Assembly: GCA_964187785.1 (NCBI GenBank)
Contig: OZ076409.1
Span: forward strand, 58,530,001 to 58,594,000
Direction of reading: 5' to 3'
DNA: 64,000 nucleotides
Origin: Amphiscolops sp. MND2022
Lineage: Eukaryota
Positions 32,101 to 54,764 of the stretch are shown piece after piece. Made by a program: the position numbers and the translations under genes. The notes beneath the pieces are model-generated. The model was not told the origin of the DNA. It made no database searches and saw only the letters and a program-made list of their open reading frames with translations. Within the stretch, counting starts at the first letter, position 1. Every line of letters begins with the position of its first letter.

Positions 32101-35100
32101 AAAATAGAGAAAGTTACGGCATTCTTTTCCTTCATTTTAAGGTTGCTGCTGCATAATATATACAGCAATTACTAATTGCGCTTTTCTTCATTCTTTATGG
32201 ACATATCTGCAGGGAGCATGTCCCTAGGAAAGGTATTTTTGGTGTAGGGGGGGGGGTGTTGATTCATTGAGGTAAAAATTATTGCGTAGTGATGGGGGGT
32301 TGCGTTTTACCTTGTTATGATTATGTAAGACGGAAAAAGTATACTATGCAATTCTCAATGCGCCTGAATACAATCTTGAGAAGAGGAAACGACGCAAAGG
32401 ACAAGAGGCAAAAATAATGAGATGTAATTTTAAATGAAGGAAAACTGAGAGGAGAAAAAAGGCAAGACAAAATTAGAGGAAGTGTTGCATGACGTGAACA
32501 AACTGGAAAAACATGAACGGTTTAACTCGCATTCCTTTGTGTTCGGCCAGAAAGGGGAAAACTCAATGAATGGGAAACACGGCGAAAAAACATGGCATTG
32601 CCATATGATACATATTTGCAAGCTCATAAATGATGGAAAAAAGTGTTGGTGTGAAAAAAGGCAAGTGCCTCCCGATAGACTGACGCCAACTTACACTATG
32701 AGTGACGTTTAATTTATCCATTGCCGGTACTGGTGTTAGAAGTGACAGCGCGTGGATATACCAGGCCTTTCCTTTCCTGGGGAAGACCCGCAATAAATTA
32801 GTGGCAGCGGGAAAAACCCCGGGAAATGAGGGTAGATGGTACACTTTTTGGTAAGAGTTCAAAATGTTTCCAACATACCATCAAAAATGCCATTATCCTT
32901 TAAATCAGAGGCACCGAAGCATAAGCTTGCGGCTTTTACAGTGCAATTTACGCGTCAATTTGAAAAGTTAGCAGAAAGAACCCGTCGATTTAATTGGAAA
33001 GTTGATTGCGGATTTAGGGGGTATGTTATGAGGCCATGTAAGGACATATATGGAAAATGCCAGTTGTGTTTTTGACGCAAAGCTGTAAAGCTTCAAATTG
33101 GGATGTGATCAAAAAGAATCGACCGCTTTTTCCGGAGAAGGGGAACTTTTCCAGAGTATGCAAAATTGTTCCCAGTGGATGCCGCATTATGGTGTAGTTT
33201 ATAATCGATTGAGATTAGGCATAAATGATGGAAAAAGACCAGTTTTATGTTTTTGTGAACCACTTCGAAGCTCCCATGAACAAATTTTGCAAAGAAATCT
33301 TGAAACAAAAAATGTCAATTCATGTTGAAAAATCGTTTCACTCCGGAACGCAGCCTTGTAAAGTGTTTCAAGTTTCTGTGAAGTTTGGAACACAAAAGTG
33401 ACGTTTTGGATTGTGAAAATTCAGGCGCCATCAAGTGCGCACTTCTCATAGAGAAAAGCATTGTTCAGATAAAAATTATTTACCGCCGTTGTAAAGTGTG
33501 TTTCAGCACCGGCAAAGGGGATAAGATACAAGCTGGAAGTATATTATTGAGAAAATTACAAGCGACAGGTTGACGACAACTTTTGAGGAAAATTTCTAAA
33601 CACCAGACTTGTATTTTCTCCCTTTTCATCTGACGTCACACAACTAATTTTGGCTGTGGAAAAATCAATAATGCAAAGTACTACTAAAACTTAAGAGTGC
33701 AATGAAGTTTCAGGGTGAATTCAATTGAAACATGGAGATGAAAATTTGATTAGATAATTATGGCAATACACGAAACATGCTAAAACTCTGCCATTGATCA
33801 AAAAACGAATTAATAATATGTTTCCTTTAAAGGAAACATATTATTAATTCGTTTTTTGATCAATGGCAGAGTTTTAGCATGTTTCGTGTATTGCCATTTT
33901 TTCGCAAAAATGAATTTGAAAATTAACCAAAGCTGGTGTACGTTGAAAAGGTAATCCACAGGTTTTGTTTTTTTTTTCTACATTCTATGAAAAATAGGAG
34001 AGATCTTAAAGAAACAGGCTGCTCTATGAAATATTCAAGTTGAAACTCTCCGAGCCTGAAAACTGGCATGCAACTTTTGTAAAAAAAACTTTTGAACTGA
34101 AAAATTTTGACAGTTGCAACAAAACAACAAATGACTCATTAAAAAATCAATTAGAGCTCAAGTTTACCCTCGAATAAAAATGAGAAAATCATGAAAAAAG
34201 TGAAGACACAAAAATTATTGAAACGTGAAAGTTCAGGCCATAAAAATGGACAAAATTCAAGAAAAAATGATTCAGAAAGTGATTTCGGATTTTGACCTCC
34301 TGCGATTGAAATTAGGTCAACCCAACGAAGCGTGTATAAAAGGGCCATAAATTGAAGGTGTCAAATTCGGGCTCATACAATTCATTTTCCCCTTGACAAC
34401 GTCTAATGTGAGACAATTCAATAGAATCAGCTGCAGTTAAAGCTTTCTTCGTGAATCTTCTCCCCTGTTCCTAAAGTAGCGGTCAGTGATTTTTCACGTG
34501 AGTGATCGCACCAGGTGACGTCATTTGTTCTTTCAAGTTCAACAGTTAACGTCGAGTGTTTGTGGAGGAGTTCAATGAAATGCTGGGTACTTATATCAAG
34601 CATAGTTAAATACCGGAGTTTCCATTTATGAACAAAAAAAAAACGATTTTTTTTACATGAACCCAAACTACGTCAAGAAAAAAAAAGGAATTTCAAAATT
34701 TTCCTTTGATTGTAAAAACCCACCCAGGTTTTTGGTCAACGTCTGCTTTTGAAAATGAGAAATTATTTTGGTACTTTTTGTTTTCGTAGTAATGATTGAT
34801 GTCAAACACGATAGAAGTCTTGCATAGCATTAAAAATTTGCAGGCAGCTCTAGGTGAAGTTGTAAAAAATTGTCAAGTACGTCAATTGTTCTTAATTAGT
34901 TACAATTAGAATGTTTTAGCATCATAATGTTAGATGAATTGCAATTAAGTTAACATTCTTCAACTATCCTTGAGGGTTTATCAGCAAGGACGAAACATTT
35001 ATAAGAATCAGTATGGTGAAGCTGATTGTTTTAGTATACAAGCAGAAAAAAATCTTTAAAACCTGTTTTAAAAAATTTAGCACATACATGACTGCAGCAT

Positions 35101-38035: not shown

Positions 38036-38040
38036 GTAAA
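38036..38040. other. target-site duplication GTAAA (partner 54271-54275)
   Basis: The same 5-mer lies immediately outside both LTRs. Confidence 0.92.
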
Positions 38041-39832
38041 TGTCGTAAGCACGATTGTCCGAGAATGTGGATCCGTCCTTCTGACGATCACCAAGCGTCT
38101 TACTCTTCAAATTGTTTCTAGAGTCTGCATTACGCAGAACTTCGGAATATTCTTCCGGTCTCTCAGACGGAACGTTCCATCTCTCTTTGGTCATATGTCC
38201 AGAATCGGCCATTAGGGCATTTTGAATCTGGGGAAGTACCTGATTACTTATAGCCTCACTTATAGCTCTTTGGATTTGAACACTGACACTATTCATCATC
38301 TCATCCATCTCCCGAGATATACGGGAATTCAACTCACTCGACAATCTGTTGATCTCAGCGTTAGAACTACCTCTAACTGAGTTCTGTCCTAATTCGGCAT
38401 TTGGACCAGGCTCGTCAGTTCTAGAGTTGGGCGATCTATTTTCATCCTCATTTTCAAATTCATCACCAAAAAGACTATTAGGTCTTCTGGCCTGATTACT
38501 ATTTAAACTTTCACTTCTTTTGTTCCTAATGAAATGATTTCCTCCAAGCATTATGTCTAAGTTCTCAATGTCGGATAACATTTCTGCTTCTCTTGATTTC
38601 CTTGCTTTCTTTTGCTTCCTTGTGGTAGGCATTTAGATAGAAAGTCCGAGGTAAATTTTGAATTATTATTTTCGGAAAATAAGAGTCAACTGTTTGGTAC
38701 AAACGTATTATACTTGTGTGTCCCTCAGGAGTGAAACTCGTATATATACTCTCTGGGGTATGACTTTTACAAAAGGAATTCACAAATAGTATTCAAACAT
38801 TCCAATCGGGGCACGGGACTAAGGATTTCAGCGGGAAATACACTGCAATCTCCAGTTTTCCGACTCGATTGGGAAATTCCTAGCATTCTAGAATTACAAT
38901 TGTTTATCTATCAAAGGCGGCATCAAAATATTTACTAGTGCATCAAATGGATCTTCTGTCCGTCAAAGGACCTAGCACTCATCAGGAATGTAAACAACAT
39001 TACACACATTCCTTTCAGGCACGTGCCACCGCGTGGCCTGAAATAAGTTCTACAACAATGTGTAGTACATCATATTATTAGGCCTAATACGGCCAATTAT
39101 CATGTTAGCAATTATATACGCTAATCAACCGATTAGCCCCAAATGTATGTACCACTTTACTTTTCAAAAGAACGCAACAACTTCAGTGGCCGGAAATAGC
39201 CGGCTAACTAATAGGCAAGCACTAATGAAATATGGCCTTGAAGGCCTAGCAAAAGGTTGAGTATTAAGACAAAGCATCAGTTATAGGAAAAGATCTGGCT
39301 ATTATGAAAGTACAAATACAACAAACATAACTCGTCTCATGTTAAATTACCACCTTATTTCAGCTTTGAACAGAGGGGACGAAACCGGCCATTTGACCAG
39401 TGTATCAAAAGAGAATATTGAAAGCACGGCAACTGGCCTTATTCGGCCATTAATTAAATAGCATCAATAAACGAGATTACATACTGCGATATGATTGGCT
39501 GAGATAACGTGCTCAAGTGACGCTACCGGTACAGTGCCGTACATCACTTGAACACGTTTCCTATACTGCCTTACAGTCGTTATTGCTTTCAATTATCGCA
39601 TCAATTCTAACCATACAGTAATTTGATTTGGATTACTCCAATTGTACTATTTTTAACAGACTAATCAATGTAACTGAATTAACAAAAATACAAAAGCGTG
39701 TTTTGTTACAAAACGTTAGCATAACAGTTTAAAAGTTTCAGTTTCAGAAAATTGGTAGAGTACCTGGTGCCGTTTCCTGATCTGCGGATGTCGTTGTAAT
39801 CCTTGTGCCGTCACAGGCGGCAGCCTGCGACA
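38041..39832 (-). repeat. 3' LTR of copy B (1792 bp)
   Basis: Direct repeat of 52479-54270. It contains a duplicate of the first ~197 gag codons and the last 29 codons of ORF3. Confidence 0.97.
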
Positions 39833-40532
39833 CTGCAGGAGCTACGAAAAGCAGACTGCCCGCGTTCAGCCCGTTGATATAAGCTTCGCGCCTTAATCTC
39901 GTAATGTACTCCGGTTCGTCCCGCGGCGTTGACCTCTCCATATACCAGTTGACTTTCTCGTCCTTTATTTCATCTACGGACCTGCCACATACCAGACATC
40001 CTGTATAGCGCACTCTGCTGATATCTTCGTGGGGTTGCGTATTTTGCACATGATAAGAGGCATGAAACCCGCCTGCAAAGGATTGTACTAAGGGAGTGTG
40101 ATTGCTTGGTCCTTTCTCGTGTTCCGGCGGCGACATTGGAGACTCCGGTACCGGCAGCAGCGTCTTGCATAGCTCAATTCGCGTCTTTTCCACTCTCTTG
40201 GGTGGGGCGTAGCATCTCTCATGGTCGAAGTATCTTTGGTCCATTTTGGGGGTAGTGTCCTTGTGCGGCTGTGAGCTGCTTGGACCGGCTACCATGTGTT
40301 CCTCTTTGAAGTCGTCCGTGGTCATGATTCTGCCTCCTATCAGCATAGGGCTTGAAGTCACTTCTTTCTCTATTCTCGCGATGAGCTGCTCCGTGTTCGT
40401 GGAACAGTCCGTCTCCCATCCTTCTGACAGTTCGTCGTCGCTACTTGATATGTAAATCACTGAAGCTTCAGACTCATCCGAGCTATCTCCGTCGAAGTCA
40501 AATAATTTTCTTGCCAAGTTGTATTTAGACAT
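39744..40532 (-). CDS. ORF3: 262-aa accessory protein of unknown function (RxL-like, SIM-like and CxxC motifs), reading into the 3' LTR
   Basis: First ATG at 40532 (MSKYNLARKLFDF); stop at 39744, inside the LTR. The LTR-encoded tail SQAAACDGTRITTTSADQETAPGTLPIF* is conserved in the diverged copy A LTR as SQAAACDGNNYTTSGYGQEITPGTLPIY* (6724-6638), with the same length and stop position. Confidence 0.8.
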   Translation of the reverse strand: MSKYNLARKLFDFDGDSSDESEASVIYISSSDDELSEGWETDCSTNTEQLIARIEKEVTSSPMLIGGRIMTTDDFKEEHMVAGPSSSQPHKDTTPKMDQRYFDHERCYAPPKRVEKTRIELCKTLLPVPESPMSPPEHEKGPSNHTPLVQSFAGGFHASYHVQNTQPHEDISRVRYTGCLVCGRSVDEIKDEKVNWYMERSTPRDEPEYITRLRREAYINGLNAGSLLFVAPAVSQAAACDGTRITTTSADQETAPGTLPIF

Positions 40533-41443
40533 TATGATTTTCTTTGCAATTTTTGAAACTTGTGAGTCGACTGAACGGTGAGGAGATTCAAATTCAAATA
40601 AGTTTACCAACTCCCACCTCAAGACGAGTCGGGTAATTTCCCGGGGGACTCGTTTCGGCGGTAGAATCTTAGGTTATTCAACCTTATCTGTCGTAAACTT
40701 TCATGAATGGAATTTCCAGCGGCGGTTAATCCTTTGAAACTTAGGTAGGAACCCTCCATCTTCGTCTTCTCAAGTGGGTAGTCGGAGAGGTGTTAAGTTG
40801 ACAACAACAAATAATTCCGCTTTCAAGTGGGTAATTAACATCGAGCTTGATAGTAATTAACGGCATGCGTCAGGTTAAGTCTACTAAAATGGCTTCAGCC
40901 AATCAAATTTGGGCTTCGATAAATTTGAAAAATGAATAGTAAAGATGGCGGAAAATAATAATTTTGAATAACTAAAATGGCGAAAATAATAAATCGAAAT
41001 AATTCAAAATGGCAGAAATAACAATTTGAGTAACTATAATAACGGAAATCCCAATTAGGATAACAAACGAAATGGAACAAGACGATAAACCGAAATGGGG
41101 TTAACGGCCGTAATCGGCCAATGATTCCATAAGTTGTAAATAATGAAGTAATTTTTGTACATTTCGCTGGCAGACTCCATGTACAGAATAAATATGTAAA
41201 TAATCCCGTAATATTAGTCTGGTAATTTCTTCAGCCACGAACTCCAACTTTCTCTCTTTTAATTGTTACATTATTTGATTCATCTACTATTCACTCCTTA
41301 CTCTTTCCATTATTCTCCTTTGTCTACAACCCCAGTTTCTGCATTTATTGGGCTCGCTCATAATTCCATTGCCAGCGTCACCTCTACGCAGGTCCCCGAT
41401 TTCTTCTTCTTCTTTTGTCCGAATCCAGCTGTTCAATCCAGTC
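40533..41443. promoter_or_regulatory. putative bidirectional promoter between ORF3 (-) and the antisense cargo gene (+)
   Basis: Lies between head-to-head start codons. CCAAT at 40899-40903; four AA(A/G)ATGGC (YY1/Pho-like) motifs at 40886, 40942, 40974 and 41006; GGCC-N6-GGCC at 41106-41119. Confidence 0.55.
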
Positions 41444-44400
41444 ATGTCGGACCGACAAGGACTTTCCCCAGAAGAGCAAAAACTTCAGTGCCAAGAGATC
41501 GTTAACACAGGTTGGTTTGAGTAATCATATTTTGAACTAATTAACGTGATCAAGGTTAACTTTGTTCATAAACTGCTTCCTGTTTTCATCAAAAGACACG
41601 TGATAACATGTCTATTTAAAATTTCAAACACTTCCGGAAGATTTCTAAAGCGGTCAAAATGGACTTTTTCCAAGGAAGCACACCGCCAAATTTCATTTCT
41701 TTCTGTTTAGTTGGCCAGAATGAAGATGAACCACAAACTTCTTCCAACACTGTTCCGGATCCCTCCGTTGCACTAATTCAAGTGGTTAGCCCGCCTTCTA
41801 ATGCTGATCCAGTTCGGCCCCCTGTTCCTTCTCCTCCACCTTTTCCGCCACTGGTTTCTACAACTTCCCGGATTCAAACTGGGGAAATGACTCCCCTTTA
41901 TAGTCCCGACAGTAACACAGATGTTACTTCTTATGCTGATGAGATGGTCCAACGGCTAGAGGATGCACAGGCTAGGCGCATAGCTGAAGCAGACGTCACA
42001 ATCGAAACAGCTTTCAATACGGCCCCCAACTCGCAAGTTCCGGAGAGTAATTTGAATCCCCTCCTCCCAAGGTCAAGCACTCCAACTCTTGATGCTGAAA
42101 CAGTTGGGCTGTCCGCTAGCCTGTCACAACTTGAGACTGCCTTTGGCGTTGTCATCGGTACACAGTCTGACTTGCCGGTTCTTGTTCCAGTTCCCTTACA
42201 AACAGAATTGCGGGAGCGAAGTGATGGGGATAACACGTCCTCCACTTGTGACTTTCCTGGGCTGCCAAAAGATAACCCAAAAGTCCACTTCTTGACGGAT
42301 GACCCTACTGAGAGTGAGAAGGCTAGTGACGACACAAGTCATGTAGAAGGACCAGCCCTTTACAGCTCTGTCCCTTTTGGATCTGAATCCGGAACTGAAG
42401 CCGGGGATGAGTCAGGACCAGGACATGACACTGTGGGACTTGGTATGCCTTCCAGCTCTCGGGGACCAGATGACCATCTTCCAGAATTAACCGGTCGAAG
42501 CCGAGCCATCTTGAAGACGTACTTTGCTGACACCAAGCCATTCAACCTACCGCTAGGACACCCCACTGTGGCTTTTACTGAGGCTCAGATGTATCATCTG
42601 CTACGGGTCCTGAGTGATGAAACTCTTCGAATGTCCTACTCTACCATGGAGAAGATGGTCGTCGATGCCGTCAGAGGCAAACCTACTGTTGCACCTTCTA
42701 AGACGTCTCACTTCCTCATCAGGAACAGAGCACAAACTCCAGGCAGATGGGATCAGAACGACCAGAGCTCTTCAGAAGCTGAGTACGACTCGAGCGCGGA
42801 CTCTAGGGCCTTAACTCCTACCAGTGCAGGAGATACAGGAGATTCTTCCTTCGAAGGGGAATCGGACAGTGCCACTGAAATGGCTCTGATTTCAGCTACC
42901 CTGGGGGGCGAATCCCAACTTGCTCAATCTTCGCAAGAAAAGGACAGATTCGTTGCCACATGTACCACAGGTGATGATGAGACCACGGGCCCCAGTAGTC
43001 AGGAAACTACTCTCCTAGAGCTCCAACAGCAAGCCCGAGGGACGAAGGCGAAAGGTTCTTCTGGGCGCAAACTCACCACTAAACCAAGAAGACTTGCCAG
43101 TCGAGGGGTCCCAATGCGGGAAGAATTTTTCGCCAAGATTGGGTGGACCCGATCTTTTATCTCTGGACCCGCTGATCCGGTACACAATCCACATATGGTT
43201 TGGTGCCATATGTGCAAAAAGAATTTTTCAATTCGGTCCAAGGGCGCTTTCGAAATCTTACGCCACCATCGTACAGAGAGACACCTGCGACGAGACCAAC
43301 GTTGGAGGTACGAACACCTCAAGAGTGTGGACCCAGCCAGTGGGAAGATACGGCATCGAGTCCGAGGTCGGAATGGGAAAGTGCTGACCGCAATCGAGCT
43401 AGCCAAGGAATTGCCGAAGTTCATTCACACTGAACTTGTAGACGTAGGAGAGAGATTTCCCTTCTACGACGACTTCATGCAAGGGCGACCTACTGCCTTA
43501 GTCACCTCTGAGTCGCGGGCAAAACTACAGCTGTCCATCATAGGAGACTTCCTACAGACCCAAGGCGACTTCTCGCTGCTGAAGAGTCTGTGGTCGAGAA
43601 TCAGTGCCCACACCGACTACCAGGCTAACTTGTGCGATTTCGATTGGTCAGAAGAGCGCATTACGGTAGGTTCTTTTCTGTAAGTTGACCAATCGCTTTC
43701 GCGTTATCGACTAGGTTACTAAATGTACTTGTCCATTTCAGGCCATCTTCCAACACTTCTTTAACTGCACTATGAACAACTTGGCAGAACAGATTACGGC
43801 TGAGCAGTGCTTTGCCATAGAGTTCGAGGACAGGGGCCCTAACAGGTACATGACAGTACGATACTGGGAAGGCCAAAATCTCCACCGGGTCCTCATCTGC
43901 AGGAGCCAACTACCAGCTACTGACCTGACCGGGGAACTGGGATCATTGTCCCGACTGTTGTCTGTTGTTTCCACCAAGGCTGACATAGTGGCGTGCTCCG
44001 GAAGCTCTGTCGATCTTCTTCGCACAATTGATTATTCTCCCCTCTTCTCCCGAGCTGTGCAGAGTTGTTTTCGGTTTGACCAGTTGAATCTACCCAAGAT
44101 GATGCATAAGACCAGTTACAGTGTCTTTGGCCACATAGATTTTTTCTCAGTCCTACGTGGTCTAGTTATCTCTCTTGGTGGAGCGCATTCTGAAGACTGG
44201 TACCAACGCAGCCCAGAGCTAGCCCAGGTAAATAACGTTCACCTTTCTAGTGTTGCAATCATAATCAATCAGGTGTTAACTGAGGGGGGGGGGAGGAGCG
44301 AATATCCTTAGTTGTTCGAGTTTAAGTTGCGATTTCCTTTCCCAGGCCATATCCAGCTGCAGATTGGAGCTCTCCACTTTACCGACCCTTTGCCAGGAAC

Positions 44401-45914
44401 TGATTGAGGAGTGGAAGCCGATAACGAGCTACTTGACGACGCACGTGCCACAGCAACAAGGTCAAGGAGTCCGTACTCGGGTAAGTAACCAGATCCTTAC
44501 AGCCTTTAAATATATGCTGATTAGGAGTTGCTTGAGGTATATAGGAGGATGAGTTCCCATTTCCGTTCAGTGTCTATTGTACTAATATAGGGTCTTATTA
44601 CAGGTGCAAAGTTTTGAGTGGGGGCTAATTTGTGACGAATTCATTCTTGTCAAGCTGGAACTCGTTTGCCGGATCGTCAGTGACTGTTAGTGTGCCTTTA
44701 TTATCTTTAGTCAGGTTTTCTGCTTTAAACTGTACCAATTCCTTTCCTTAGATAACACTAGCTTCATTGTCAACACTCATCATAGACGAGATGCTTCATT
44801 CTTCCTCTGTGGGGAGGTTTCCAAATTCGTCTACCAGCTGTGCTTCAGATGTTTCACTAGCGATTCGGTTCCTTTGCCAAGTGCCTGGTTTCTCCTCCTG
44901 GGATTCCAAGTGGGTGACGGAACCCTCATGACTGCTGGAGAATTTCTTGTCCGGCTCAATATGACCAACAAGGTTGCCTCTGCTTGCAAACGAAAGGCCG
45001 AAGGGGTCCATTCTGGAAAACGGTCGGATCGGGCCCTAGTCCAAAAAACAGCCGAGACCATCAAGACTGAGTTCGTCCAGGATGCCATGGCTTATCTAAA
45101 GTACCTAATTAGTGAAGTACTGCGACAAGCTGGGCTCAGTTCCAATATCATCAAGGGGCTGGCCGCATTCGACCCTCACATTATGGTCAAACGTCCCACG
45201 GAGGTGGCGCTCCGGCATTTCGACATCCTTTTTAGCACGTTTCAGCGCCGTTCTTGGATCAGTGCCTCAGTCGAAGCAGCCTGCAGAGATCAATATGTTG
45301 AACTAATTGACTACCTTCGCGCTAAGTACTCTGGTGGGCTCGAAGTTACGGAAGAGGCTAAGGACCTCATAGATTTCCTGATGAACCTTGATTTCCTGCA
45401 AACACGAGAGCATCTCCTCCACTTATTCAAGTTGTGCTGCCTTTGCATCACTACAGTGGGTCCTGAATTTCCAGTTGTAAACGTGGGCAGAGTTGATACT
45501 TCCGGACAACGGGGTCGCTTCATTGACGTCGTTCTCCCCATCCAGAGCTATTTGATCGGGGTTCCTGGCTCTGTAGCGAGGTGTGCGAGCGAGTCTAACC
45601 TCACCAATTTCTCCCTTCTTTCTGCCTCTTTTGGGTCATCTGCTTTTTCGCCTACTTATGACCCTTGGGAGACGGTTGATGTCTTTGGGCGGACGAAGAT
45701 ATACAAGTCGCTTCTATCCTCTTATCGTTCCGCAGTCTCAGAGCCTTCAGTTGGGTCTGCTCAAGTGGAAGCCAATGATACGTCTTCGGTCCTGGATGAT
45801 GCGGCATTGAAGGTGCCCAGTAGCAGTAAACGCAAACGGACTGAGAAGAGAGCTGCTCGATCCCGTTCCTCATCCGTCCTCAGCGAGTCTACGTCCAGTT
45901 CTTCTAATGTTTAA
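41444..45914 (+). CDS. antisense six-exon cargo gene, 1295 aa: disordered acidic/Ser-Pro N-terminus, BED-like zinc finger, degenerate hAT-transposase-like core, basic C-terminal NLS-like motif
   Basis: Exons 41444-41510, 41711-43665, 43742-44227, 44346-44480, 44604-44685 and 44752-45914 (3888 nt, one open frame). All five introns are GT-AG with pyrimidine tracts and matching phases (1,0,0,0,1). Zn finger: VWCHMCKKNFSIRSKGAFEILRHHRTERH. hAT-like blocks: CFAIEFEDRGPNRYMTVRYW, SCFRFDQLNL, LIEEWKPITSYL, LLHLFKLCCLCI. Confidence 0.85.
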
Positions 45915-46144
45915 GTGTACATATGTATTTATGTACAATTTGAAACTGTATTCTTTGTTGATTTTCTGATTCTGTATTTGTTTGTTATGATTTCATTTCT
46001 GTGCCCCTATATTATTCATTTGCTAAGGGGTCTGTTTTGTGTCCCATTATTTATTCAAAAAATTTGCTTCTATGGGACAAAAGAAAACGTTAAAGAAAAG
46101 AAAATAGGTTCGGGGCTTATTTCCTGACCTAAATTCAATCTTTC

Positions 46145-49100
46145 TTAGTATCTGAAGTCTTCTGAGTAGTTCGGATTAGGGTTAGGCCTGAGATTATATT
46201 TCCCTCCTCTAGGGCTCAGACTTTCATTTCTAGCATCGTTTTCGGATATTTCGGGCACGATAATATCATCCCCCCTTCTGGATGATTTTTGTGCATCGTT
46301 TTCATTCATTGGATTTCTTTCTGAAAAAATTTCATCCTTTTCCGGTCCATCTGCCGTATTCGGCAAAAAATTTTCTGGGTTTTTCGGGAAAACGGCCGGA
46401 TTCGGCCAATCAGATTTGTTATTTTCTGTCACTGCAGTAGCTTCATTTCTTTCAGTGACGTCATCATTCAATCGTTCATCTCGGCTGTGCGACGCACGAT
46501 CGGCAAGATTTGATTCGTCACTCGTGATTACATAATCCACTTCATTCTCGCTTGCGTCATTTGCATTCGCTTCTGCCGGACTTGGCTGTTCGTCATTCGT
46601 CAAGCTGGCTGGAATAGGCTCGCTGCCTCGTGTATCTAGCTGTTCGCCAAAGTTTGTTTCCCACGTTATTACATACAAGTCGTCTTGCGGAATGATTATT
46701 TCGTCATCCGGCTGTAGACGCTGTTCTCGGAAATTGTCCTCAAGTGGCTGATTTGGAACAAACTTTTTGAGACGAATTCGATGCAAGATCTGCGTTTTAT
46801 TTGTATTAAGCCTGCGGACGATGTAATTCTCATTAGGTAAGATCTTCTGGACTATAAATGGTCCAACCCAGCGATAATCCTTGAATGGAATTTTTGATCC
46901 TTGATGATCCGCTTTCGGCTGTAATACAAAACAGTAATCGCCCTCTTTGAGTGGGGCGGCTTTTGCTTTTCGGTCGTAATACTCCTTATATTTGATATAT
47001 GACTGCATGATGTTCTGCTTTGTTTTGTCAATAAGGAGTTTGGTCCGGTTCTGGATTTCTTCTGCGAATTCAGTAGTCGGATGGATTGGCTCATTTGGAT
47101 TCATTCCAAGTTTGTGATCCAAGATGTTGTATGGGATTCTCCCGTGGAACACTCTTGTGGGTTCGCATCCGATACTGGCATGATAACTAGTGTTATGGTT
47201 GAGAACTGCTAAAGGCAAATATTTATGCCATTGTCGGCGATATTCCCCACATGCCATTTTCAGGTTCATTTTCAATGAGGCATGAGTTCGCTCTAATTTT
47301 CCGATAGTTTGCGGGTGTTTCGTCGTTGCACATTTTAGGGTAATGCCTAAAATCTGTGTAATTTCCGCAATGATCGTGGAAGTAAAGGCAGTTCCTTTGT
47401 CCGTAATGAGCGTCGTCGGTAGGTAAGAATGTTTGGTCATAATATCAATGATTGCTTTAGCTACATTGATCGCTGATGCGTCCGTAAGAGGATAAGCAAA
47501 CAAGTATCGAGAGAAGACATCAATTGCAGTTAAAATATTTTCGTATCCTCCACTTGGGGGAAGATTCGGCAATAAGTCGATTTGCATGGCGTCTTCGGGT
47601 CCAAGGTCCCATTCCGGCAAGTTAAGTAGTTCAGGCGTGATTGTTGCGTTTGGGACTCGTTTGTCCTTTGCACATTGTTCACACCCTTCTACCCACCTTT
47701 TGACATATTTTGCCATGTTAGGGTAATAATACCTTTGTCTGATTTCCTGCAACATTTTTGAAATCCCGGGATGTTTATGCGCTGTCCCGTGAAGGGAGTG
47801 GAGCAATTCCCGAAGTAGGTGTTGCGGGAGCAAAATTTGATGGTATTTAACATTCCCTGTTTCATCAAAATATTGCCTTGTCAGGATTTCGTCCTTTAGT
47901 ACAATTCGTTCCAGATTATTTGCATAATGTCTATATCGGGCATCCTGTTGCAGTATGTTTTCTGAATAGTCTTCATGAAGGAGCTTTGCCTTCAATTGTT
48001 GCAATACTGCATCTTTGGACTGCTCGATGATTATCTGGTTTGTTTTCTTTAATCGGACTTGAATGTCTGGTTGTTGTTTGACCAGATTGGTTGACAGAGT
48101 TTCTATGGTAACAGTGTGCTCGTCAATTGCTGGATTTTTCCTGATTGCTTCTTTTCTTGCCCAAAACTGTTCTTCTGTTTCGTTGTCGTCATTCGTATAG
48201 AATATTTGTTCTTCCTGTGATACCCCCGCAGATTGAACATTTATCTCAATGGGTAAAGTTTGTACGTCCTCGCGGATTTTCATGACAAATTTATCCTTCG
48301 GATCTGCCTCCAATCGGGACAAATAGTCAGCTGCTGTGTTCTGTGCCCCCGGGATATGTGCTATGACAAAATTGAACTGAATTACATAATCACATGCATT
48401 CCACAGGGCTGGGGGTATTATTTTTGTTTGAAAAAATCTCGTCACAGCTTTGTTGTCCGTGAGAATAATGACCGGTTTGGGTGCACCCCAGAATATATGT
48501 CCAAATTCTTTGAATGCAAAATAAATTGCAAGAAACTCTTTGGCATATATCGACATCTTTATCTGGGCTGGGGTGAAGGTTTTAGAGCCATATGCCACCG
48601 GTGCATAGGATTTTCGAAGGGAAGTAAATTTCTGGTTCGGATCATCTTCTATCAGTACTGCGTATCCTGCTGCACCAAAACTTGCATTTGTCATTAATGC
48701 AATTTGCTTATTTGGGATGGGTTGTTGTAGGGCCAAGTCGCAACATTTGTCTAGTGCTTTATTGATTTCTTCGAATTGTTGGACTAATTCTTTCGATACT
48801 AGGACTTTTTCGTCACTTTTTAGCATCTTGTAGAATGGAGCAAGGCGTTCGGAGAGTCTTGGGATATAATTCCTGTAGTAGTTTAGGAATCCCAAATATC
48901 GTTGTAAAGCCTTTTTCGACTTCGTGAATTTGGTCTTTTCCAGAAAGTTTTGCACGTTCTGTTTCTGGGGTTTGACGCCTTGCGGGGTAATAGTCCTTCC
49001 GAGAAAATCAATTTCTTTGGCACCAAAGTGACATTTGTGCATTGTCAATTTAAGGCCTGCTTCCTGAATGCATTTGAATGTGGCTCTCAGGTTAGCTATG

Positions 49101-51358
49101 AGGTGGTCAGCGTCGTTTGCTGCAATGCCTATATCGTCCACGTACTGGGCACACTGATCCGCTTTGATGACTTTGTCGAGGTATTCTCTCATAAAACTCG
49201 AGAATGCGGATAGTGACCGGCTAAGGCCTTGTGCCAAACGTCTGTAGGCGAATGTGCGAATGGCAAAATTGAAAGCCAACATTTCTATTGAACGTTGGTC
49301 GGCCATTGGTAGGCAATGGTATGCCTGCGAACAGTCTAATTTACAGAATAGTTTTTTGCCTGCCAAGTGTTGGGCAGCATCAACCAAGGTGCTAACAGGG
49401 TGATTATTGTTTATATAATCATCCGAGATGAGGTTGTTGATTTTTCTCAAGTCAACCAAAAGTCGTAGTTTCCCGTTTGGTTTCTTTTGGGCGAATATTG
49501 GGCTTGCATACTTTGAGAACGGTAGAGTGGTGATGATGCCATATTTGTGTAACATGGCTAATTCGACTAGGATGTCCTCCTTCAAGTTGATAGGAGCTGG
49601 AAGACTTTGACTAAAGGCTGGGGAATCGTCTTTAGGTGTCAGTTTCACCTTGAAGTCCTCGTTCATGCCTATATCGAATCGGTGTCGTGCAAAGATGTCG
49701 TGGAATTCCACTAACAATTCTTCTATTTTCTCCTTCTCTTCAGGAGTAAGGGTGGAATCTTTCCAGTCAAAGTTTTCTAAGAATTTTGCACGCGATTCTG
49801 CGTCTGTGGTGGGGTCGAGTGTCTCCAGGTCCTGTAAGGCCTGTAACTCACAGTGGATTCGTTTTTGTATGGGTGTGTGTTCCTCAGGATTTCCAGGGTT
49901 TTCTGGAGTTGGGAACCAGTAATTTTCGGAGTTTTGTGGATTTCTATTGGTTTTGATGAGACTGCTGACATAATGGGCTGCTTGCTCTTGATCATTCTGC
50001 AAAAGGTGCCAGGTTGATGCCGGGTCTACCGGTTTGACGTATTTCATTTGTTCTGGCGTCATGACAGAGAAATTGGCAATATGTAATCCCTTTTTGAGTT
50101 TATAAGGATGGTCTGTGAAATTGTTCACTGGTATCAATATATTGCCATCATTCAGAGTGACCAAGGCTGGGCAGAATGTGATGTCGCCTTCTTCATGTAG
50201 AAGGTCGCTCGGTTGTAAAATTCCAGTGACAGCATTCTCAGGGTACAGTAGGGAATTGGTCCTGATTAGGACTCTGTCATTCGGCGGAATGGTTATTTCA
50301 GTAGGGTTGAGAATTGGTTCTAGCACGTTTGAGTATTTATGGTCAGCTGTTTTTAGCTGCATTGAAAAGAACGGGAAGTTCAGGATTCCTTGCCTCATGT
50401 CCAGGACTGTATGATTTCGCTGGAGGAACATTAGTCCTATGATTGGTCCTGTCAGATGTTCCATTACTATGAAGATTTCATGGAACTCAATGTCACCAAC
50501 TTCGAATTTGAGCTCTATGGTACTTTTAGGAGTTTCCAGTTGCCCATTAGCGACCATGATTTGGAAGTTCGGAGGTGGACCCTCTCGGATAACTGATTGT
50601 GGTGAAAGGAGTCTGATTTTCCGGAGGTCCATTTCGGGGATTGCACTGGATAAGGCACCAGTGTCGATAAGTCCATCAATGGTCAATTCCCCAAAGTCCA
50701 TAGGGAAATATAGCATGCGTTTCTTGCATTTCAAGTTTATGTTGGTAGACAGGGGTATACAGTCTGGTTCACCTTCTCTGGTAATAAGGATGTTTTGGAA
50801 CTGACTTTCGTCAAGTAGTGACTGTGGTATTGTTTCTTCTGGTTTGTCTGAGGTCTCGGTCCCTAAGTGGTTTGGGAACACCGGATGACTTGTACCATCG
50901 TTCATCTGCCATGTTTCAATCAATGCTCTGGTTTTCTTGTTATGGGTGATTGGTGGATTGTCGTAGACTGATCTGTTATAGAGTTCTATATCATCAATGA
51001 CGTATTGGAATTGTAACAAATCCTGGTTGTAAAGTTCGGTATCCCAATAGGGATCTCGTCCATAGTCAGGATCTATGTAGGTAGGGTTGTAGTTGTCTAC
51101 CAAGGGAATGGGCCTGAATCGGCTATTGAAAGCGGATGTGTAATCAGGGTCCCATACAGGAATTGGCTTTTGGAACAAATGGGTATTATTATAAGTAATA
51201 ATGGTAGCTTTTTCCATTTGTTGCTGCCAGACAACAGAAGGATAGCCCATCAATTGTTGATTGTATTGGTGAAAAGTTTGCGTTGGAGGGTCCGATCTGA
51301 TGTATTGTCGGACAGATATTAGTTGGTGGTATTGGAGTCGTGGCGAAGTTAGTTTTTT
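46145..51358 (-). CDS. pol: pol polyprotein of copy B (protease, dUTPase-like region, RT, RNase H, integrase with GPF motif and long acidic tail), translated by -1 frameshift from gag
   Basis: The 1702-aa ORF (46145-51253) is open upstream to the slippery site at 51352-51358. Motifs: LIDTGA; QYVDDIG; LMTNAS (RNase H Asp changed to Asn); HGTAHKH...CEQC; IDLL / TDKG / KLER; WVGPF. Confidence 0.96.
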   Translation of the reverse strand, partial: KKLTSPRLQYHQLISVRQYIRSDPPTQTFHQYNQQLMGYPSVVWQQQMEKATIITYNNTHLFQKPIPVWDPDYTSAFNSRFRPIPLVDNYNPTYIDPDYGRDPYWDTELYNQDLLQFQYVIDDIELYNRSVYDNPPITHNKKTRALIETWQMNDGTSHPVFPNHLGTETSDKPEETIPQSLLDESQFQNILITREGEPDCIPLSTNINLKCKKRMLYFPMDFGELTIDGLIDTGALSSAIPEMDLRKIRLLSPQSVIREGPPPNFQIMVANGQLETPKSTIELKFEVGDIEFHEIFIVMEHLTGPIIGLMFLQRNHTVLDMRQGILNFPFFSMQLKTADHKYSNVLEPILNPTEITIPPNDRVLIRTNSLLYPENAVTGILQPSDLLHEEGDITFCPALVTLNDGNILIPVNNFTDHPYKLKKGLHIANFSVMTPEQMKYVKPVDPASTWHLLQNDQEQAAHYVSSLIKTNRNPQNSENYWFPTPENPGNPEEHTPIQKRIHCELQALQDLETLDPTTDAESRAKFLENFDWKDSTLTPEEKEKIEELLVEFHDIFARHRFDIGMNEDFKVKLTPKDDSPAFSQSLPAPINLKEDILVELAMLHKYGIITTLPFSKYASPIFAQKKPNGKLRLLVDLRKINNLISDDYINNNHPVSTLVDAAQHLAGKKLFCKLDCSQAYHCLPMADQRSIEMLAFNFAIRTFAYRRLAQGLSRSLSAFSSFMREYLDKVIKADQCAQYVDDIGIAANDADHLIANLRATFKCIQEAGLKLTMHKCHFGAKEIDFLGRTITPQGVKPQKQNVQNFLEKTKFTKSKKALQRYLGFLNYYRNYIPRLSERLAPFYKMLKSDEKVLVSKELVQQFEEINKALDKCCDLALQQPIPNKQIALMTNASFGAAGYAVLIEDDPNQKFTSLRKSYAPVAYGSKTFTPAQIKMSIYAKEFLAIYFAFKEFGHIFWGAPKPVIILTDNKAVTRFFQTKIIPPALWNACDYVIQFNFVIAHIPGAQNTAADYLSRLEADPKDKFVMKIREDVQTLPIEINVQSAGVSQEEQIFYTNDDNETEEQFWARKEAIRKNPAIDEHTVTIETLSTNLVKQQPDIQVRLKKTNQIIIEQSKDAVLQQLKAKLLHEDYSENILQQDARYRHYANNLERIVLKDEILTRQYFDETGNVKYHQILLPQHLLRELLHSLHGTAHKHPGISKMLQEIRQRYYYPNMAKYVKRWVEGCEQCAKDKRVPNATITPELLNLPEWDLGPEDAMQIDLLPNLPPSGGYENILTAIDVFSRYLFAYPLTDASAINVAKAIIDIMTKHSYLPTTLITDKGTAFTSTIIAEITQILGITLKCATTKHPQTIGKLERTHASLKMNLKMACGEYRRQWHKYLPLAVLNHNTSYHASIGCEPTRVFHGRIPYNILDHKLGMNPNEPIHPTTEFAEEIQNRTKLLIDKTKQNIMQSYIKYKEYYDRKAKAAPLKEGDYCFVLQPKADHQGSKIPFKDYRWVGPFIVQKILPNENYIVRRLNTNKTQILHRIRLKKFVPNQPLEDNFREQRLQPDDEIIIPQDDLYVITWETNFGEQLDTRGSEPIPASLTNDEQPSPAEANANDASENEVDYVITSDESNLADRASHSRDERLNDDVTERNEATAVTENNKSDWPNPAVFPKNPENFLPNTADGPEKDEIFSERNPMNENDAQKSSRRGDDIIVPEISENDARNESLSPRGGKYNLRPNPNPNYSEDFRY

Positions 51359-53070
51359 GACTCATCATTGGAAGATGAGGTTTGTGAGTTGGAAGATGTT
51401 GATTTGTTTTGTGGTTTCTGCGCCTTTGAATTGGGGTTACCGTCATTAGCGTCATCTGGTCTGGTGCGTTTGGGTTTGAGATGCGCACCAGCACCTTGCC
51501 AACATCTTTCTTCCGGGTGGTTCTTTTTACCACAAGTGCCACACTCCGGATACGTCTTTTTCTGAGTTTGTTTGCCTTGTTGGGTATCTTTTTCTTTTTT
51601 CTTCTTCAATTTCTCGCAATCTTTGACCATATGGCCCTTTTCTTTGCAATAATTGCACGTTATATCACTCATCTGTACGTTGGAAGGAACAGTTTTTGTC
51701 TTGCCAATCGAAGATGTCATTGATGCTATGGGCAGGTCGTCAGACTCTTCGAGTGCATTCAGTTCCAGTTCTCGTTCTAGATGAGCAACAATTTCATCGT
51801 AAGAGCCATTCTCTAGTCTAGCCATGTTGACTGATCTTTTGAGCTTTGGTGGCAGTTTTGCATATAGGAGACTGTCGATCATTTTTTGGGCATTGTCTCC
51901 GAAGACTTTTTCTGCTCCTTGGTTAAGCTCTTCAAGAAAGTCTGGCAATTTGGTCGTGTTAGGGTCAAAGACTAGGCGATGCCATTTGTGTTTTGCAGTT
52001 GCCTGAGATTCGGGTTTGACGTACTTTCGTCTGAAAATGACAAGTACATCCTCAAGAGTTTGTCTGTTGGCGTTGCTGATGTTTCTGAATGTTTGGAGTG
52101 CATTCTTTCGCAGCAAGGGATGGAAGTGATTGATTTTCATTTGTTCGGTCATCTCAGGCTGCATCTTGATCATCGTATGGAATAAATCCTCAAACAGCTC
52201 GAACTTCTCACTTTTTCCGTCGAATGTCATTGTGTTGGAGTTGACTGGGCGGATAGTGAGTTGTTGGGCCGTTGTGCGGTTCTGCATACTAGTCAAAACA
52301 TCTGCTAGCCTGTTGATGGGGTCCTGTTCTGATGCCAGAGCGGGTCGTTCTCGTGCTAGGATCGTCGTGTCGAGCAGCGGAAGGTCATCACAGGATCTGT
52401 TGAGATGACTAGTGGATGGCATTCGTCCTGTGAGAAACTCAGGAACTTCAATTGGAGATTCGTTTTCTCCTGTCACCATGTCGTAAGCACGATTGTCCGA
52501 GAATGTGGATCCGTCCTTCTGACGATCACCAAGCGTCTTACTCTTCAAATTGTTTCTAGAGTCTGCATTACGCAGAACTTCGGAATATTCTTCCGGTCTC
52601 TCAGACGGAACGTTCCATCTCTCTTTGGTCATATGTCCAGAATCGGCCATTAGGGCATTTTGAATCTGGGGAAGTACCTGATTGCTTATAGCCTCACTTA
52701 TAGCTCTTTGGATTTGAACACTGACACTATTCATCATCTCATCCATCTCCCGAGATATACGGGAATTCAACTCACTCGACAATCTGTTGATCTCAGCGTT
52801 AGAACTACCTCTAACTGAGTTCTGTCCTAATTCGGCATTTGGACCAGGCTCGTCAGTTCTAGAGTTGGGCGATCTATTTTCATCCTCATTTTCAAATTCA
52901 TCACCAAAAAGACTATTAGGTCTTCTGGCCTGATTACTATTTAAACTTTCACTTCTTTTGTTCCTAATGAAATGATTTCCTCCAAGCATTATGTCTAAGT
53001 TCTCAATGTCGGATAACATTTCTGCTTCTCTTGATTTCCTTGCTTTCTTTTGCTTCCTTGTGGTAGGCAT
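51349..53070 (-). CDS. gag: gag of copy B, 573 aa, two CCHC knuckles; starts inside the 5' LTR and reads through the PBS
   Basis: ORF track; CNYCKEKGHMVKDC and CGTCGKKNHPEERC; homologous to the copy A gag. Confidence 0.95.
   Translation of the reverse strand: MPTTRKQKKARKSREAEMLSDIENLDIMLGGNHFIRNKRSESLNSNQARRPNSLFGDEFENEDENRSPNSRTDEPGPNAELGQNSVRGSSNAEINRLSSELNSRISREMDEMMNSVSVQIQRAISEAISNQVLPQIQNALMADSGHMTKERWNVPSERPEEYSEVLRNADSRNNLKSKTLGDRQKDGSTFSDNRAYDMVTGENESPIEVPEFLTGRMPSTSHLNRSCDDLPLLDTTILARERPALASEQDPINRLADVLTSMQNRTTAQQLTIRPVNSNTMTFDGKSEKFELFEDLFHTMIKMQPEMTEQMKINHFHPLLRKNALQTFRNISNANRQTLEDVLVIFRRKYVKPESQATAKHKWHRLVFDPNTTKLPDFLEELNQGAEKVFGDNAQKMIDSLLYAKLPPKLKRSVNMARLENGSYDEIVAHLERELELNALEESDDLPIASMTSSIGKTKTVPSNVQMSDITCNYCKEKGHMVKDCEKLKKKKEKDTQQGKQTQKKTYPECGTCGKKNHPEERCWQGAGAHLKPKRTRPDDANDGNPNSKAQKPQNKSTSSNSQTSSSNDESKN
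51352..51358 (-). promoter_or_regulatory. -1 ribosomal frameshift slippery heptamer A_AAA_AAC (also 3829-3835 in copy A)
   Basis: TCA AAA AAC TAA ends gag in both copies, and the -1 frame is open from there into pol. Confidence 0.85.
52467..52478 (-). other. primer binding site of copy B (TGGTGACAGGAG)
   Basis: Directly follows the 5' LTR end (...TACGACA|TGGTGACAGGAG) and is conserved in copy A. Confidence 0.88.
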
Positions 53071-54270
53071 TTAGATAGAAAGTCCGAGGTAAATATTGAA
53101 TTATTATTTTCGGAAAATAAGAGTCAACTGTTTGGTACAAACGTATTATACTTGTGTGTCCCTCAGGAGTGAAACTCGTATATATACTCTCTGGGGTATG
53201 ACTTTTACAAAAGGAATTCACAAATAGTATTCAAACATTCCAATCGGGGCACGGGACTAAGGATTTCAGCGGGAAATACACTGCAATCTCCAGTTTTCCG
53301 ACTCGATTGGGAAATTCCTAGCATTCTAGAATTACAATTGTTTATCTATCAAAGGCGGCATCAAAATATTTACTAGTGCATCAAATGGATCTTCTGTCCG
53401 TCAAAGGACCTAGCACTCATCAGGAATGTAAACAACATTACACACATTCCTTTCAGGCACGTGCCACCGCGTGGCCTGAAATAAGTTCTGCAACAATGTG
53501 TAGTACATCATATTATTAGGCCTAATACGGCCAATTATCATGTTAGCAATTATATACGCTAATCAACCGATTAGCCCCAAATGTATGTACCACTTTACTT
53601 TTCAAAAGAACGCAACAACTTCAGTGGCCGGAAATAGCCGGCTAACTAATAGGCAAGCACTAATGAAATATGGCCTTGAAGGCCTAGCAAAAGGTTGAGT
53701 ATTAAGACAAAGCATCAGTTATAGGAAAAGATCTGGCTATTATGAAAGTACAAATACAACAAACATAACTCGTCTCATGTTAAATTACCACCTTATTTCA
53801 GCTTTGAACAGAGGGGACGAAACCGGCCATTTGACCAGTGTATCAAAAGAGAATATTAAAAGCACGGCAACTGGCCTTATTCGGCCATTAATTAAATAGC
53901 ATCAATAAACGAGATTACATACTGCGATATGATTGGCTGAGATAACGTGCTCAAGTGACGCTACCGGTACAGTGCCGTACATCACTTGAACACGTTTCCT
54001 ATACTGCCTTACAGTCGTTATTGCTTTCAATTATCGCATCAATTCTAACCATACAGTAATTTGATTTGGATTACTCCAATTGTATTATTTTTAACAGACT
54101 AATCAATGTAACTGAATTAACAAAAATACAAAAGCGTGTTTTGTTACAAAACGTTAGCATAACAGTTTAAAAGTTTCAGTTTCAGAAAATTGGTAGAGTA
54201 CCTGGTGCCGTTTCCTGATCTGCGGATGTCGTTGTAATCCTTGTGCCGTCACAGGCGGCAGCCTGCGACA
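52479..54270 (-). repeat. 5' LTR of copy B (1792 bp)
   Basis: Direct repeat of 38041-39832 with TG...CA ends and an adjacent PBS. Confidence 0.97.
53179..53186 (-). promoter_or_regulatory. TATA-like box upstream of gag (also 38741-38748 and 5659-5666)
   Basis: TATATATA is kept about 110-120 nt upstream of the gag ATG in both diverged LTR types. Confidence 0.5.
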
Positions 54271-54632
54271 GTAAATATATCCAGTCGACTGTCCAGAATC
54301 GAAAAGCGAAGCTGAATTATATAGGATCGAATTATTTAGAGTCGAATTTTGACGAATCGAAAAGCGATCTTAATTTTTCTAGGGTAAAATATTAATATAG
54401 TATTTATCAAGTAATTAAATACCTTGTAGATAAGGTTAGGAAAATACAGGAGTGTAGTTCAGGGCTGTTCAATAAATAATTATGGGTAAGAATAATTATA
54501 ATGAATAAAATAAAATAATTTATTTTAACACTCAAATGAATAAAAATGATTATTTTTGTACCTGTTAAAAAAATTATTCTTGAGATAACTCAAACTAAGT
54601 GCGTTTAATTCAACATATCGTTAGCCAATTAA

Positions 54633-54764
54633 ATTCGAAAATACAGAATTCTTGAGCTAATTTCAAGAAATACCTTTGTCAAGTACCTTGGGCTACTGAC
54701 TCAAAAGGTCGAAGACTCCATTAAAAAAGCCCTGTCGCCGCGTTTTGGCATGATTATGGATGGC
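54633..54764 (+). pseudogene. fragment of a decayed hAT-like DNA transposase
   Basis: Translates to IRKYRILELISRNTFVKYLGLLTQKVEDSIKKALSPRFGMIMDG. This resembles the hAT segment leading to the first catalytic Asp (F-x-x-x-x-D-G/E-W). The frame is then interrupted by the tandem array. Confidence 0.55.

Follow-up and report, generated by a model that had tools for sequence, protein, structure and literature searches.

An intact Gypsy element with two accessory genes

The window, the whole stretch of 64,000 nucleotides from Amphiscolops sp. MND2022 analysed here, holds two related elements. One of them, a Gypsy element 16.2 kb long, intact and young, carries a module of two accessory genes, ORF3 and an antisense gene, between pol and its 3' LTR. 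The features of a Ty3/Gypsy element are present: an LTR pair on the minus strand (3' LTR at 38041..39832, 1,792 bp, TG...CA; 5' LTR at 52479..54270, with five differences), a target-site duplication (GTAAA at 38036-38040 and 54271-54275), gag (51349..53070, minus strand, 573 aa with a CCHC knuckle) and a pol open frame (46145..51361, minus strand) encoding protease, RT, RNase H and integrase in the Gypsy order. gag starts within the LTR, and the 3' LTR contains a copy of its first ~197 codons as well as the last 29 codons of ORF3. Pol overlaps the end of gag in the -1 frame, and a frameshift would lead from one into the other. A candidate primer-binding site, a conserved 12-mer starting with TGG (52467-52478), adjoins the 5' LTR and lies within gag. 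The sequence abutting the 3' LTR is GGGGAG in all but one of 16 distant full elements and CC(T/C)GCAG in all 13 near elements, the window's element among them; this lineage may transpose without a recognisable purine tract. The family is of very large size and young age: first-look candidate counts were 8,164 and 7,565, and the LTR pairs were 99.4-99.9% identical in 17 of 22 fully seen elements.

An earlier note on this DNA had placed the module where errantiviruses hold env. The module does lie between pol and the 3' LTR, but the likeness is positional only: downstream of pol, errantiviruses have an env whose product bears a signal peptide and a transmembrane segment, and neither Pfam scans of the window's proteins, which matched no env family, nor hydropathy revealed such a gene here. 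The note's remark that neither product has an obvious transmembrane segment holds, as the highest 19-residue hydropathy window reaches 1.33 in ORF3 and 1.57 in the antisense protein.

ORF3 (39744..40553, minus strand) comprises 262 aa counted from the ATG at 40532. Its coding-signal conservation extends seven codons further upstream, from K-I-A-K-K at 40553; the start probably lies upstream of this ATG, and initiation perhaps uses a non-AUG codon, with the Ile codon 40550-40548 as the candidate. The N-terminal helix is basic, and H161, C179, C182 and C240 are invariant (H-C-C-C); ORF3 is probably a zinc protein. Residues 186-225 form a predicted helical hairpin, the sole confident part of a model with an overall pLDDT of 51.7. 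A SIM-like motif (40431..40460, minus strand), a hydrophobic core followed by a Ser/acidic run, agrees with what we take to be the SIM consensus; of 18 aligned ORF3s, 13 keep it and five have a second candidate nearby, and its conservation extends to ORF3s with only about 27% identity. With dN/dS values of 0.04-0.16 (6 of 10 pairs unsaturated), ORF3 is under purifying selection. Searches of Pfam and PDB sequences with ORF3, singly or as an alignment, returned nothing significant, and Atlas offered no usable match for its domain. A candidate ORF3 mini-exon near 40760 is a minor possibility only: an ATG and a good donor occur in 19/19 copies of a second group, the donor in the window's group is weak in 16/20 copies and absent in 4/20, and distant families have no matching pattern.

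The plus-strand gene that the earlier note had described is present, but as a spliced gene of six GT-AG exons with a second conserved ATG at 41659; splicing yields 1,295 aa without a stop and with one zinc finger. The coding part of exon 1 (41444..41510, plus strand, as are all its exons) is followed by a donor GT at 41511 in 39/39 copies. Exon 2 (41711..43665) encodes a long Ser/Pro/acidic region, a single C2H2 (BED-like) finger (43204-43284, plus strand) and then a conserved domain; exon 3 (43742..44227) encodes a predicted helix and three strands, according to a low-confidence model; exons 4 (44346..44480) and 5 (44604..44685) lead to exon 6 (44752..45914), which is helical, hAT C-terminal-like and has a basic KRKR near its end. 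All splice sites were canonical in 35 of 39 copies (L045 and L055 were left out: no gene; inversion), and the conserved sites flank introns of variable length; the intron after exon 4 is precisely missing from 16 of the 39. Roughly one copy in two is broken, 19/39 reading through at least 1,250 aa. The antisense gene is under purifying selection, with dN/dS values of 0.02-0.12 for exons 2C, 3 and 6 (5 of 30 pair-by-exon values unsaturated). The first ATG, at 41444, is confined to the window's subfamily. The finger's C-x2-C...H-x5-H pattern is invariant in 12/12 copies, down to 46% identity, and the module keeps its layout at 28-35% exon-6 identity. A search for longer, spliced homologues found none.

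Co-occurrence across the family, which the earlier note had proposed as a check, was observed: both genes were found together at 39/40 ORF3-picked, 20/20 RT-picked and 16/20 distant loci. In one of these surveys the integrase marker was out of frame and was used only to mark position. At three loci of one related repeat family (L165, L181, L183), the antisense gene was present with no ORF3 or RT within 20 kb. In 5 of 10 window-group elements compared, ORF3 and pol were 95-98% identical yet the antisense exons only 60-74%. The two genes thus reassort between subfamilies, which argues against a tight interface between ORF3 and its partner.

The shared interval and the family palindromes

The two genes lie head-to-head, as first described, with 911 bp between the ORF3 ATG and the ATG at 41444. 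A coding reading of 40571-41440 was rejected, with stops in all frames and no synonymous excess. The interval contains four AANATGGC motifs, presumably YY1-like (40886..41013, plus strand; starts at 40886, 40942, 40974 and 41006), against 0.13 expected, a count that 0/300 shuffles reached. This cluster, which the earlier note had also reported, is partly a short tandem duplication; each of 12 near relatives has two to four of the motifs, and each of 14 distant ones zero to two. The CCAAT boxes named alongside it are within chance expectation (4 against 2.8, p 0.34). The most conserved non-coding block (41135..41250; 84-100% identity in 21 related elements) is a probable core promoter or RNA-processing signal. 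As a structured RNA it had no Rfam match of note, and its folding z ranged from +0.7 to -2.2 (8 folds, crude shuffle). A motif cluster in intron 1 (41575..41661, plus strand), conserved in 10/10 rows and ending in the second ATG, consists of elements that we take to be ETS-like (41575), E-box-like (41597) and an ETS-like palindrome (41631), the last found in 22 of 26 elements; it is a probable second promoter. Both genes would be expressed from promoters between them.

The palindrome GGCC-N6-GGCC occurs at nine exact sites in the window, all within its two related elements. Counting one LTR, the element has four sites against 0.09 expected (0/100 shuffles), which confirms its element-wide distribution. 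Two lie in the 3' LTR (39081..39094 and 39435..39448, with twins at 53519-53532 and 53873-53886), one between the accessory genes (41106..41119) and one in the coding pol tail (46394..46407), where it is maintained at synonymous positions. Across 20 elements, 80 sites had a gap of 6, and any other gap occurred at most four times.

Distant families have another palindrome, GGAC-N5-GTCC, at corresponding places: either motif is found in the LTR, in the tail of pol and in promoter regions. Each of the 13 near elements carries 2-7 copies of GGCC-N6-GGCC and 0-1 of GGAC-N5-GTCC; the respective counts are 0 and 6-10 in all six elements of one distant clade, and 0-4 and 2-9 in eight elements from a further clade (L034 and L069, with incomplete or tandem LTR calls, were left out of the tally). 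A background of 152,903 bp contained one and two sites, respectively. This turnover of motifs between families is a new observation here. It resembles that of VANDAL elements and their VANC proteins and suggests an element-encoded binder. Sites number 2-10 per element and are dispersed, some within coding sequence; their halves are fixed and the spacer is free (92 distinct sites), which would fit a DNA-binding dimer. In GGCC-N6-GGCC, the spacer has a strand bias, with T at position 4 in 42/42 distinct sites, a pattern that an RNA element could also give. The trees of motif type and protein have only a few deep branches in common, so the match between them is not independent. Two loci, L169 and L171, have near-identical fingers and different LTR motifs, and two others, L185 and L191, carry both genes and neither palindrome. 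A third palindrome in the latter pair, GTC-N5-GAC (10 and 9 against 2.6), failed correction for multiple testing.

Possible hAT ancestry of the antisense protein

In hAT transposases and in ZBED, GTF2IRD2 and FAM200 proteins, a finger is followed by a beta-strand core, a helical region and a C-terminal dimerisation-like part. The antisense protein has the same order of parts. By its Atlas features (0.90-0.92, below the recognition threshold), exon 6 lies nearest the clusters of hAT dimerisation and of GTF2IRD2/FAM200, which weakly supports the label 'transposase-like' given in the earlier note. Profile tests lent it no significance: hAT homology was not significant in Pfam or PDB sequence searches or when profiles were compared with those of hAT proteins from this genome, and exons 3 and 6, alone or as alignments, had no significant Pfam or PDB sequence match. 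The predicted fold of exon 3 resembles the start of an RNase H-type core; its model (pLDDT 38.8) retrieved Hermes in Foldseek at rank 23 (E 0.61), and Foldseek and VIA structure searches with the ORF3 and exon 3 models gave common arrangements only (best Z 5.5 and 6.1). The finger, C-x2-C-x16-H-x5-H with an upstream Trp, had weak C2H2 matches in Pfam and none to zf-BED. With D-D-E triad positions placed by eye and conditional on hAT homology, exon 3 has no conserved Asp and no CxxH, and exon 6 lacks a conserved Glu where one would be expected; in this respect the protein differs from hAT transposases, as it does by travelling within a retrotransposon. No donor hAT was found among 19 hAT reading frames from the same genome, and a DUF4371 search of the genome gave no match, its control being silent as well. 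Language-model features and motif order, on which the hAT link rests, suggest that the antisense protein descends from a hAT transposase that lost catalysis.

A putative element-encoded regulatory system

We propose, at a probability of a little under 40%, that the zinc-finger protein encoded by the antisense gene is a dimeric reader of the family palindrome and, together with its cofactor ORF3, keeps the element's promoters active. An element with two conserved back-to-back accessory genes and a family-specific palindrome repeated along its own DNA would thereby supply both reader and sites; ORF3 would contribute predicted SUMO binding. We infer that the zinc-finger protein is the reader, that ORF3 cooperates with it, and that they activate rather than repress. 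A more specific version, which we regard as doubtful, holds that a captured and disarmed cut-and-paste transposase is the element's anti-silencing factor, with a SUMO-binding partner and a shared bidirectional promoter, and that protein and operator palindromes co-diverged between families. The VANC-like system envisaged in the earlier note gains from co-occurrence, purifying selection, the conserved SIM-like motif and the family-specific palindrome, but the genes reassort and one family has no detectable ORF3.

The palindromes could instead be read by host transcription factors that differ by family, while the accessory proteins do unrelated nuclear jobs such as anchoring the integration complex on chromatin or protecting cDNA. 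We consider this unlikely. In its favour, the interval also conserves motifs of host type (YY1-, ETS- and E-box-like), the two genes reassort, finger and motif type are decoupled in L169/L171, and both genes occur with neither motif in L185/L191. Against it, two unrelated palindromes, rare elsewhere, swap across LTR, pol tail and promoter in one host, and one site is held within coding sequence. We know of no host factor for either palindrome. Less probable is an RNA module like retroviral Rev or CERV of C. elegans, in which ORF3 or the finger protein binds palindrome hairpins for export or packaging of unspliced genomic RNA. Each palindrome could fold as a 4-5 bp GC stem, the GGCC-N6-GGCC spacers are strand-biased, ORF3 combines a basic N-terminal helix with the H-C-C-C cluster, and CERV is described as an RNA-export accessory protein of an animal LTR element (PMC10309623). 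Such stems, however, are sequence-fixed with free loops, most clearly in GGAC-N5-GTCC, and among one-mismatch variants both-strand pairing is broken in 14/29 for GGCC-N6-GGCC (the rest 7 against 8 between strands) and in 149 for GGAC-N5-GTCC (44 and 62 by strand).

All sequence evidence for cognate binding counts equally for repression, in which the ORF3 SIM would recruit SUMO-dependent co-repressors to the palindromes for copy-number self-control; silencing effectors of the fly piRNA pathway are described as SIM-bearing proteins (10.1101/533091). The family is very large and young, however, and the finger protein's acidic disordered arm would suit an activator, and we rank this reading lower still. 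That the module is passive cargo, the antisense gene being a nested DNA transposon remnant and ORF3 an unrelated leftover, would suit the broken half of the copies. It is largely refuted by the selection data, in which synonymous sites are saturated and amino acids change little; the splice sites conserved around length-variable introns and the constant layout at 28-35% exon-6 identity also speak against it, and we give it almost no weight.

Among known systems, Retand and Grande, Gypsy elements bearing an aORF-3R, have a family-wide antisense gene in the same position, and the gene described here can itself be classed as an aORF-3R. An own promoter and nuclear localisation are reported for the Grande gene, and DNA binding is predicted for TRP28. 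The present gene differs in its five introns, 1,295 aa and zinc finger and had no match to PF04195 (TRP28) in Pfam scans; it also lies head-to-head with a sense gene whose product bears a SIM-like motif, in an element with family-specific palindromes. The function of extra antisense genes in LTR elements has been stated to be unknown (PMC7264820). With VANDAL/VANC, the module shares an accessory protein and short element-enriched motifs that differ between families (PMC5735166, PMC6719617). As far as the available text of these sources describes them, VANDALs are DNA transposons of Arabidopsis with asymmetric, dense, tandem motifs; VANC needs such dense arrays, and demethylation is shown. Here, a retrotransposon has dispersed palindromes, only four exact sites per element, and would use them as cognate sites; DUF1985 and DUF287 had no match in Pfam scans. 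Transposases without catalysis are described as sequence-specific activators, and Spm TnpA is likewise a regulator derived from transposase DNA binding, with a separate gene and cognate sites; it has not left its DNA-transposon family, and its motifs are of the HTH type (bioRxiv 10.64898/2026.08.24.746577), whereas here a putative hAT-type protein resides in a retrotransposon with internal rather than terminal sites.

CERV of Cer1, likened here by description, is a nuclear non-env accessory protein of an LTR element, made from a spliced sense mRNA and exporting RNA (PMC10309623). Extra non-envelope genes occur in Gypsy-like elements of bdelloids (LTR ORF3s; PMC5408684) and in planarian Burro, which carries a SUMO-like domain (PMC6431247); these are enzymes, membrane proteins or polyprotein domains, and the available text of both papers describes no antisense spliced gene or divergent pair. 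Transposon-encoded anti-silencing comprised only three mechanisms, all from plants, in the available text of a 2019 review (PMC6719617), and self-activation through an own binder has so far been described mainly in plant transposons. Our literature search, mostly of sources outside subscription journals and repeat databases, found no published account of the system.

Should the binding reading prove false, a deeply conserved spliced antisense gene still stands. Two natural motif variants with matching protein families provide a ready-made comparison of specificity. If the proposed reading is true, a retrotransposon regulates itself through a domesticated DNA-transposon protein, which could explain its thousands of copies; on the more specific version, a VANC-like counter-defence would exist in a retrotransposon, probably in an animal, built from the other transposon class.

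The Gypsy element and its accessory gene pair

The accessory module, formed by ORF3 and the antisense gene, lies between pol and the 3' LTR of a minus-strand Gypsy retrotransposon (window 38041-54270) that is delimited by an LTR pair with TG...CA ends and by a GTAAA duplication at both flanks. The 1,792-bp LTRs carry 5 differences within the pair; gag (573 aa) has an open reading frame, as does pol (PR-RT-RH-IN). The LTR includes the last 29 codons of ORF3 and the first ~197 codons of gag (52479-53070, minus strand), and the putative primer-binding site lies within gag family-wide. Of 22 related elements, 17 show the full layout of gag start and ORF3 end in the LTR, and their LTR pairs share 99.4-99.9% identity. 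The family is very large; first-look candidates in the 1.07-Gb genome numbered 8,164 for ORF3 and 7,565 for exon 6 of the antisense gene, figures that are not copy numbers. A second, intact-looking member with the full module and an LTR pair of 99.9% identity has its 5' part at window 1-6726 and the rest before the window, and at L109-L114 three elements stand in tandem with common LTRs, with comparable 14.4-kb spacings in the hit lists. The window also holds a tandem repeat of five to six ~1.44-kb units (about 54650-62010) and a perfect 138-bp palindrome of two 69-nt arms with zero spacer (33760-33897).

Before the 3' LTR (39833-39850 and equivalent sites), 13 of 13 elements of the window's clade carry CC(T/C)GCAG and no recognisable purine tract, and GGGGAG is found there in 15 of 16 cases from distant families; both words fall within ORF3 coding sequence. 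The window's clade is young and abundant, so its plus-strand priming would have to use another route.

Co-occurrence of the two genes across the family, named in the earlier note as a check, was borne out. Both were present in unchanged order and orientation at 39 of 40 loci chosen by ORF3 (one with an inversion), at all 20 chosen by RT and at 16 of 20 chosen by distant exon-6 relatives; the distant loci are 66-73% identical to the window in pol and 27-38% in ORF3 (figures from nine of them). At L055, an internal inversion takes in stretches of both the antisense gene and integrase. Of the four remaining distant loci, three are members of a single repeat family in which the antisense gene was detected but, over 20 kb, neither ORF3 nor RT; the fourth has exon 6 only. 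Copies of that repeat family (L165+L166, L181+L182, L183+L184) are 96-99% identical over aligned blocks of about 17 kb, and its other frames gave no Pfam match; it is possibly a non-autonomous derivative. Judged by sequence identity, the antisense gene is swapped between elements as a cassette: in five of ten window-group elements, pol and ORF3 are 95-98% identical and the antisense exons just 60-74%.

Coding potential of the antisense gene and ORF3

Comparison of 13 divergent copies, in which exons vary at third positions and introns vary in length with fixed GT-AG ends, places the six plus-strand exons of the antisense gene at 41444-41510, 41711-43665, 43742-44227, 44346-44480, 44604-44685 and 44752-45914. 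Joined, they encode 1,295 aa with zero stops. Every splice site is canonical in 35 of 39 copies, and 19 of the 39 read through to at least 1,250 aa. Intron 4 is precisely missing in 16 of the 39 (L031, L040, L052 and 13 others), although the genomic RNA of the retroelement is the opposite strand to this gene. A second ATG (41659), present in 10/10 divergent copies, is preceded by ETS-like, E-box-like and YY1-like words, which probably points to two promoters.

The antisense protein has a long low-complexity arm followed by a single invariant C2H2 finger, and a structure model predicts, at low confidence, a helix-three-strand segment. Language-model features of its helical part lie nearest the hAT dimerisation and GTF2IRD2/FAM200 clusters (0.90-0.92, under the tool's recognition threshold), and neither Pfam and PDB searches nor profile-profile comparison with hAT proteins of the same genome returned anything significant. 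The protein likely descends from a hAT transposase; if so, it would have lost the catalytic acids and CxxH.

ORF3 (40532 to 39744, minus strand) shows a dN/dS of 0.04-0.16 in the six of ten pairs with unsaturated synonymous sites. Residues H161, C179, C182 and C240 are invariant among 18 sequences with identity down to 26%, which suggests one putative zinc site, and a SIM-like (predicted SUMO-binding) motif is present in 13 of the 18; sequence-family and structure searches matched no family or fold. The conserved coding signal begins at K-I-A-K-K, seven codons 5' of the ATG, in 26 of 33 elements. In all 26, the Ile of this stretch is encoded by ATT or ATA, with an A at position -3 and a G at +4, whereas of 390 Ile codons at other places in the same ORF3s, 135 are ATC; 25 of the 26 elements lack an upstream in-frame ATG. 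We prefer a candidate non-AUG (AUU/AUA) start in strong context at 40548-40550 (minus strand), conserved across clades, over a small upstream exon supplying the start, but because the copies are related to each other, this pattern is a lead only.

Motifs of the interval and palindromes across families

The earlier note had placed CCAAT and four YY1-like motifs in the ~910-bp interval between the genes. The YY1-like words stand out (4 observed, 0.13 expected), with partly local duplication and fewer in distant families; CCAAT occurs at chance level. A 110-bp block is the best-conserved portion of the interval.

The element-wide palindrome GGCC-N6-GGCC proved real: all nine exact window sites fall within the two family elements, and GGCC half-sites in 20 elements occur 80 times at gap 6 and at most 4 times at any other gap. 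One site is kept within pol coding sequence. An unbiased dyad search of five elements returned GGAC-N5-GTCC as the top palindrome of distant families (43 against 1.8 expected). Near elements (13/13) have 2-7 GGCC-N6-GGCC and 0-1 GGAC-N5-GTCC, one distant clade (6/6) has 0 and 6-10, another (8/8) carries both at 0-4 and 2-9, and two elements of a fourth have neither; 152,903 bp of background DNA hold 1 and 2. The two palindromes occupy the same parts of the element: LTR, pol tail and promoter regions. Action as RNA hairpins would agree with the strand-biased spacer of GGCC-N6-GGCC; however, in both palindromes halves and spacing are fixed and the spacer is free, and many variants break pairing on both strands, so that putative DNA sites of a dimer fit better.

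A possible element-encoded binder

By the env test, the element does not qualify as an errantivirus, and neither ORF3 nor the antisense protein has a transmembrane-strength stretch, which upholds the transmembrane part of the earlier claim that both lack obvious signal peptides and transmembrane segments. Extra genes of plant Retand/Grande elements resemble the antisense gene in position and antisense orientation, but their domain was not found in it (PMC7264820, PMC11963269). If the module works at all, its mode of action would resemble that of VANC or TnpA; it lacks the dense motif arrays of VANC and does not belong to the VANC system (PMC5735166). CERV is the animal precedent, but for a different, RNA-level role (PMC10309623). 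The literature searched, of limited coverage, held no description of the two-gene arrangement.

A dispersed palindrome that differs between families in one host is the expected product of an element-encoded binder, and the finger protein of the antisense gene would be the natural candidate reader. hAT proteins form oligomers and use their finger to recognise short repeats. Transposases that lost catalysis can serve as sequence-specific activators (bioRxiv 10.64898/2026.08.24.746577). ORF3, via its SIM-like motif, would connect to SUMO-dependent chromatin machinery, which silences transposons in flies (10.1101/533091).

We give element-encoded binding of the palindromes with activation a tentative probability of about 0.38, and the same binding with repression appears unlikely. 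Against any such binder, protein and motif classes have just a few deep branches in common, and against the finger as reader, the fingers of the loci L169 and L171 are nearly identical although their LTR motifs differ; ORF3 could be the reader instead. Free reassortment of ORF3 and the antisense gene argues against a tight two-protein interface. From sequence comparison, the accessory module is a real, conserved gene pair with family-specific cis motifs.
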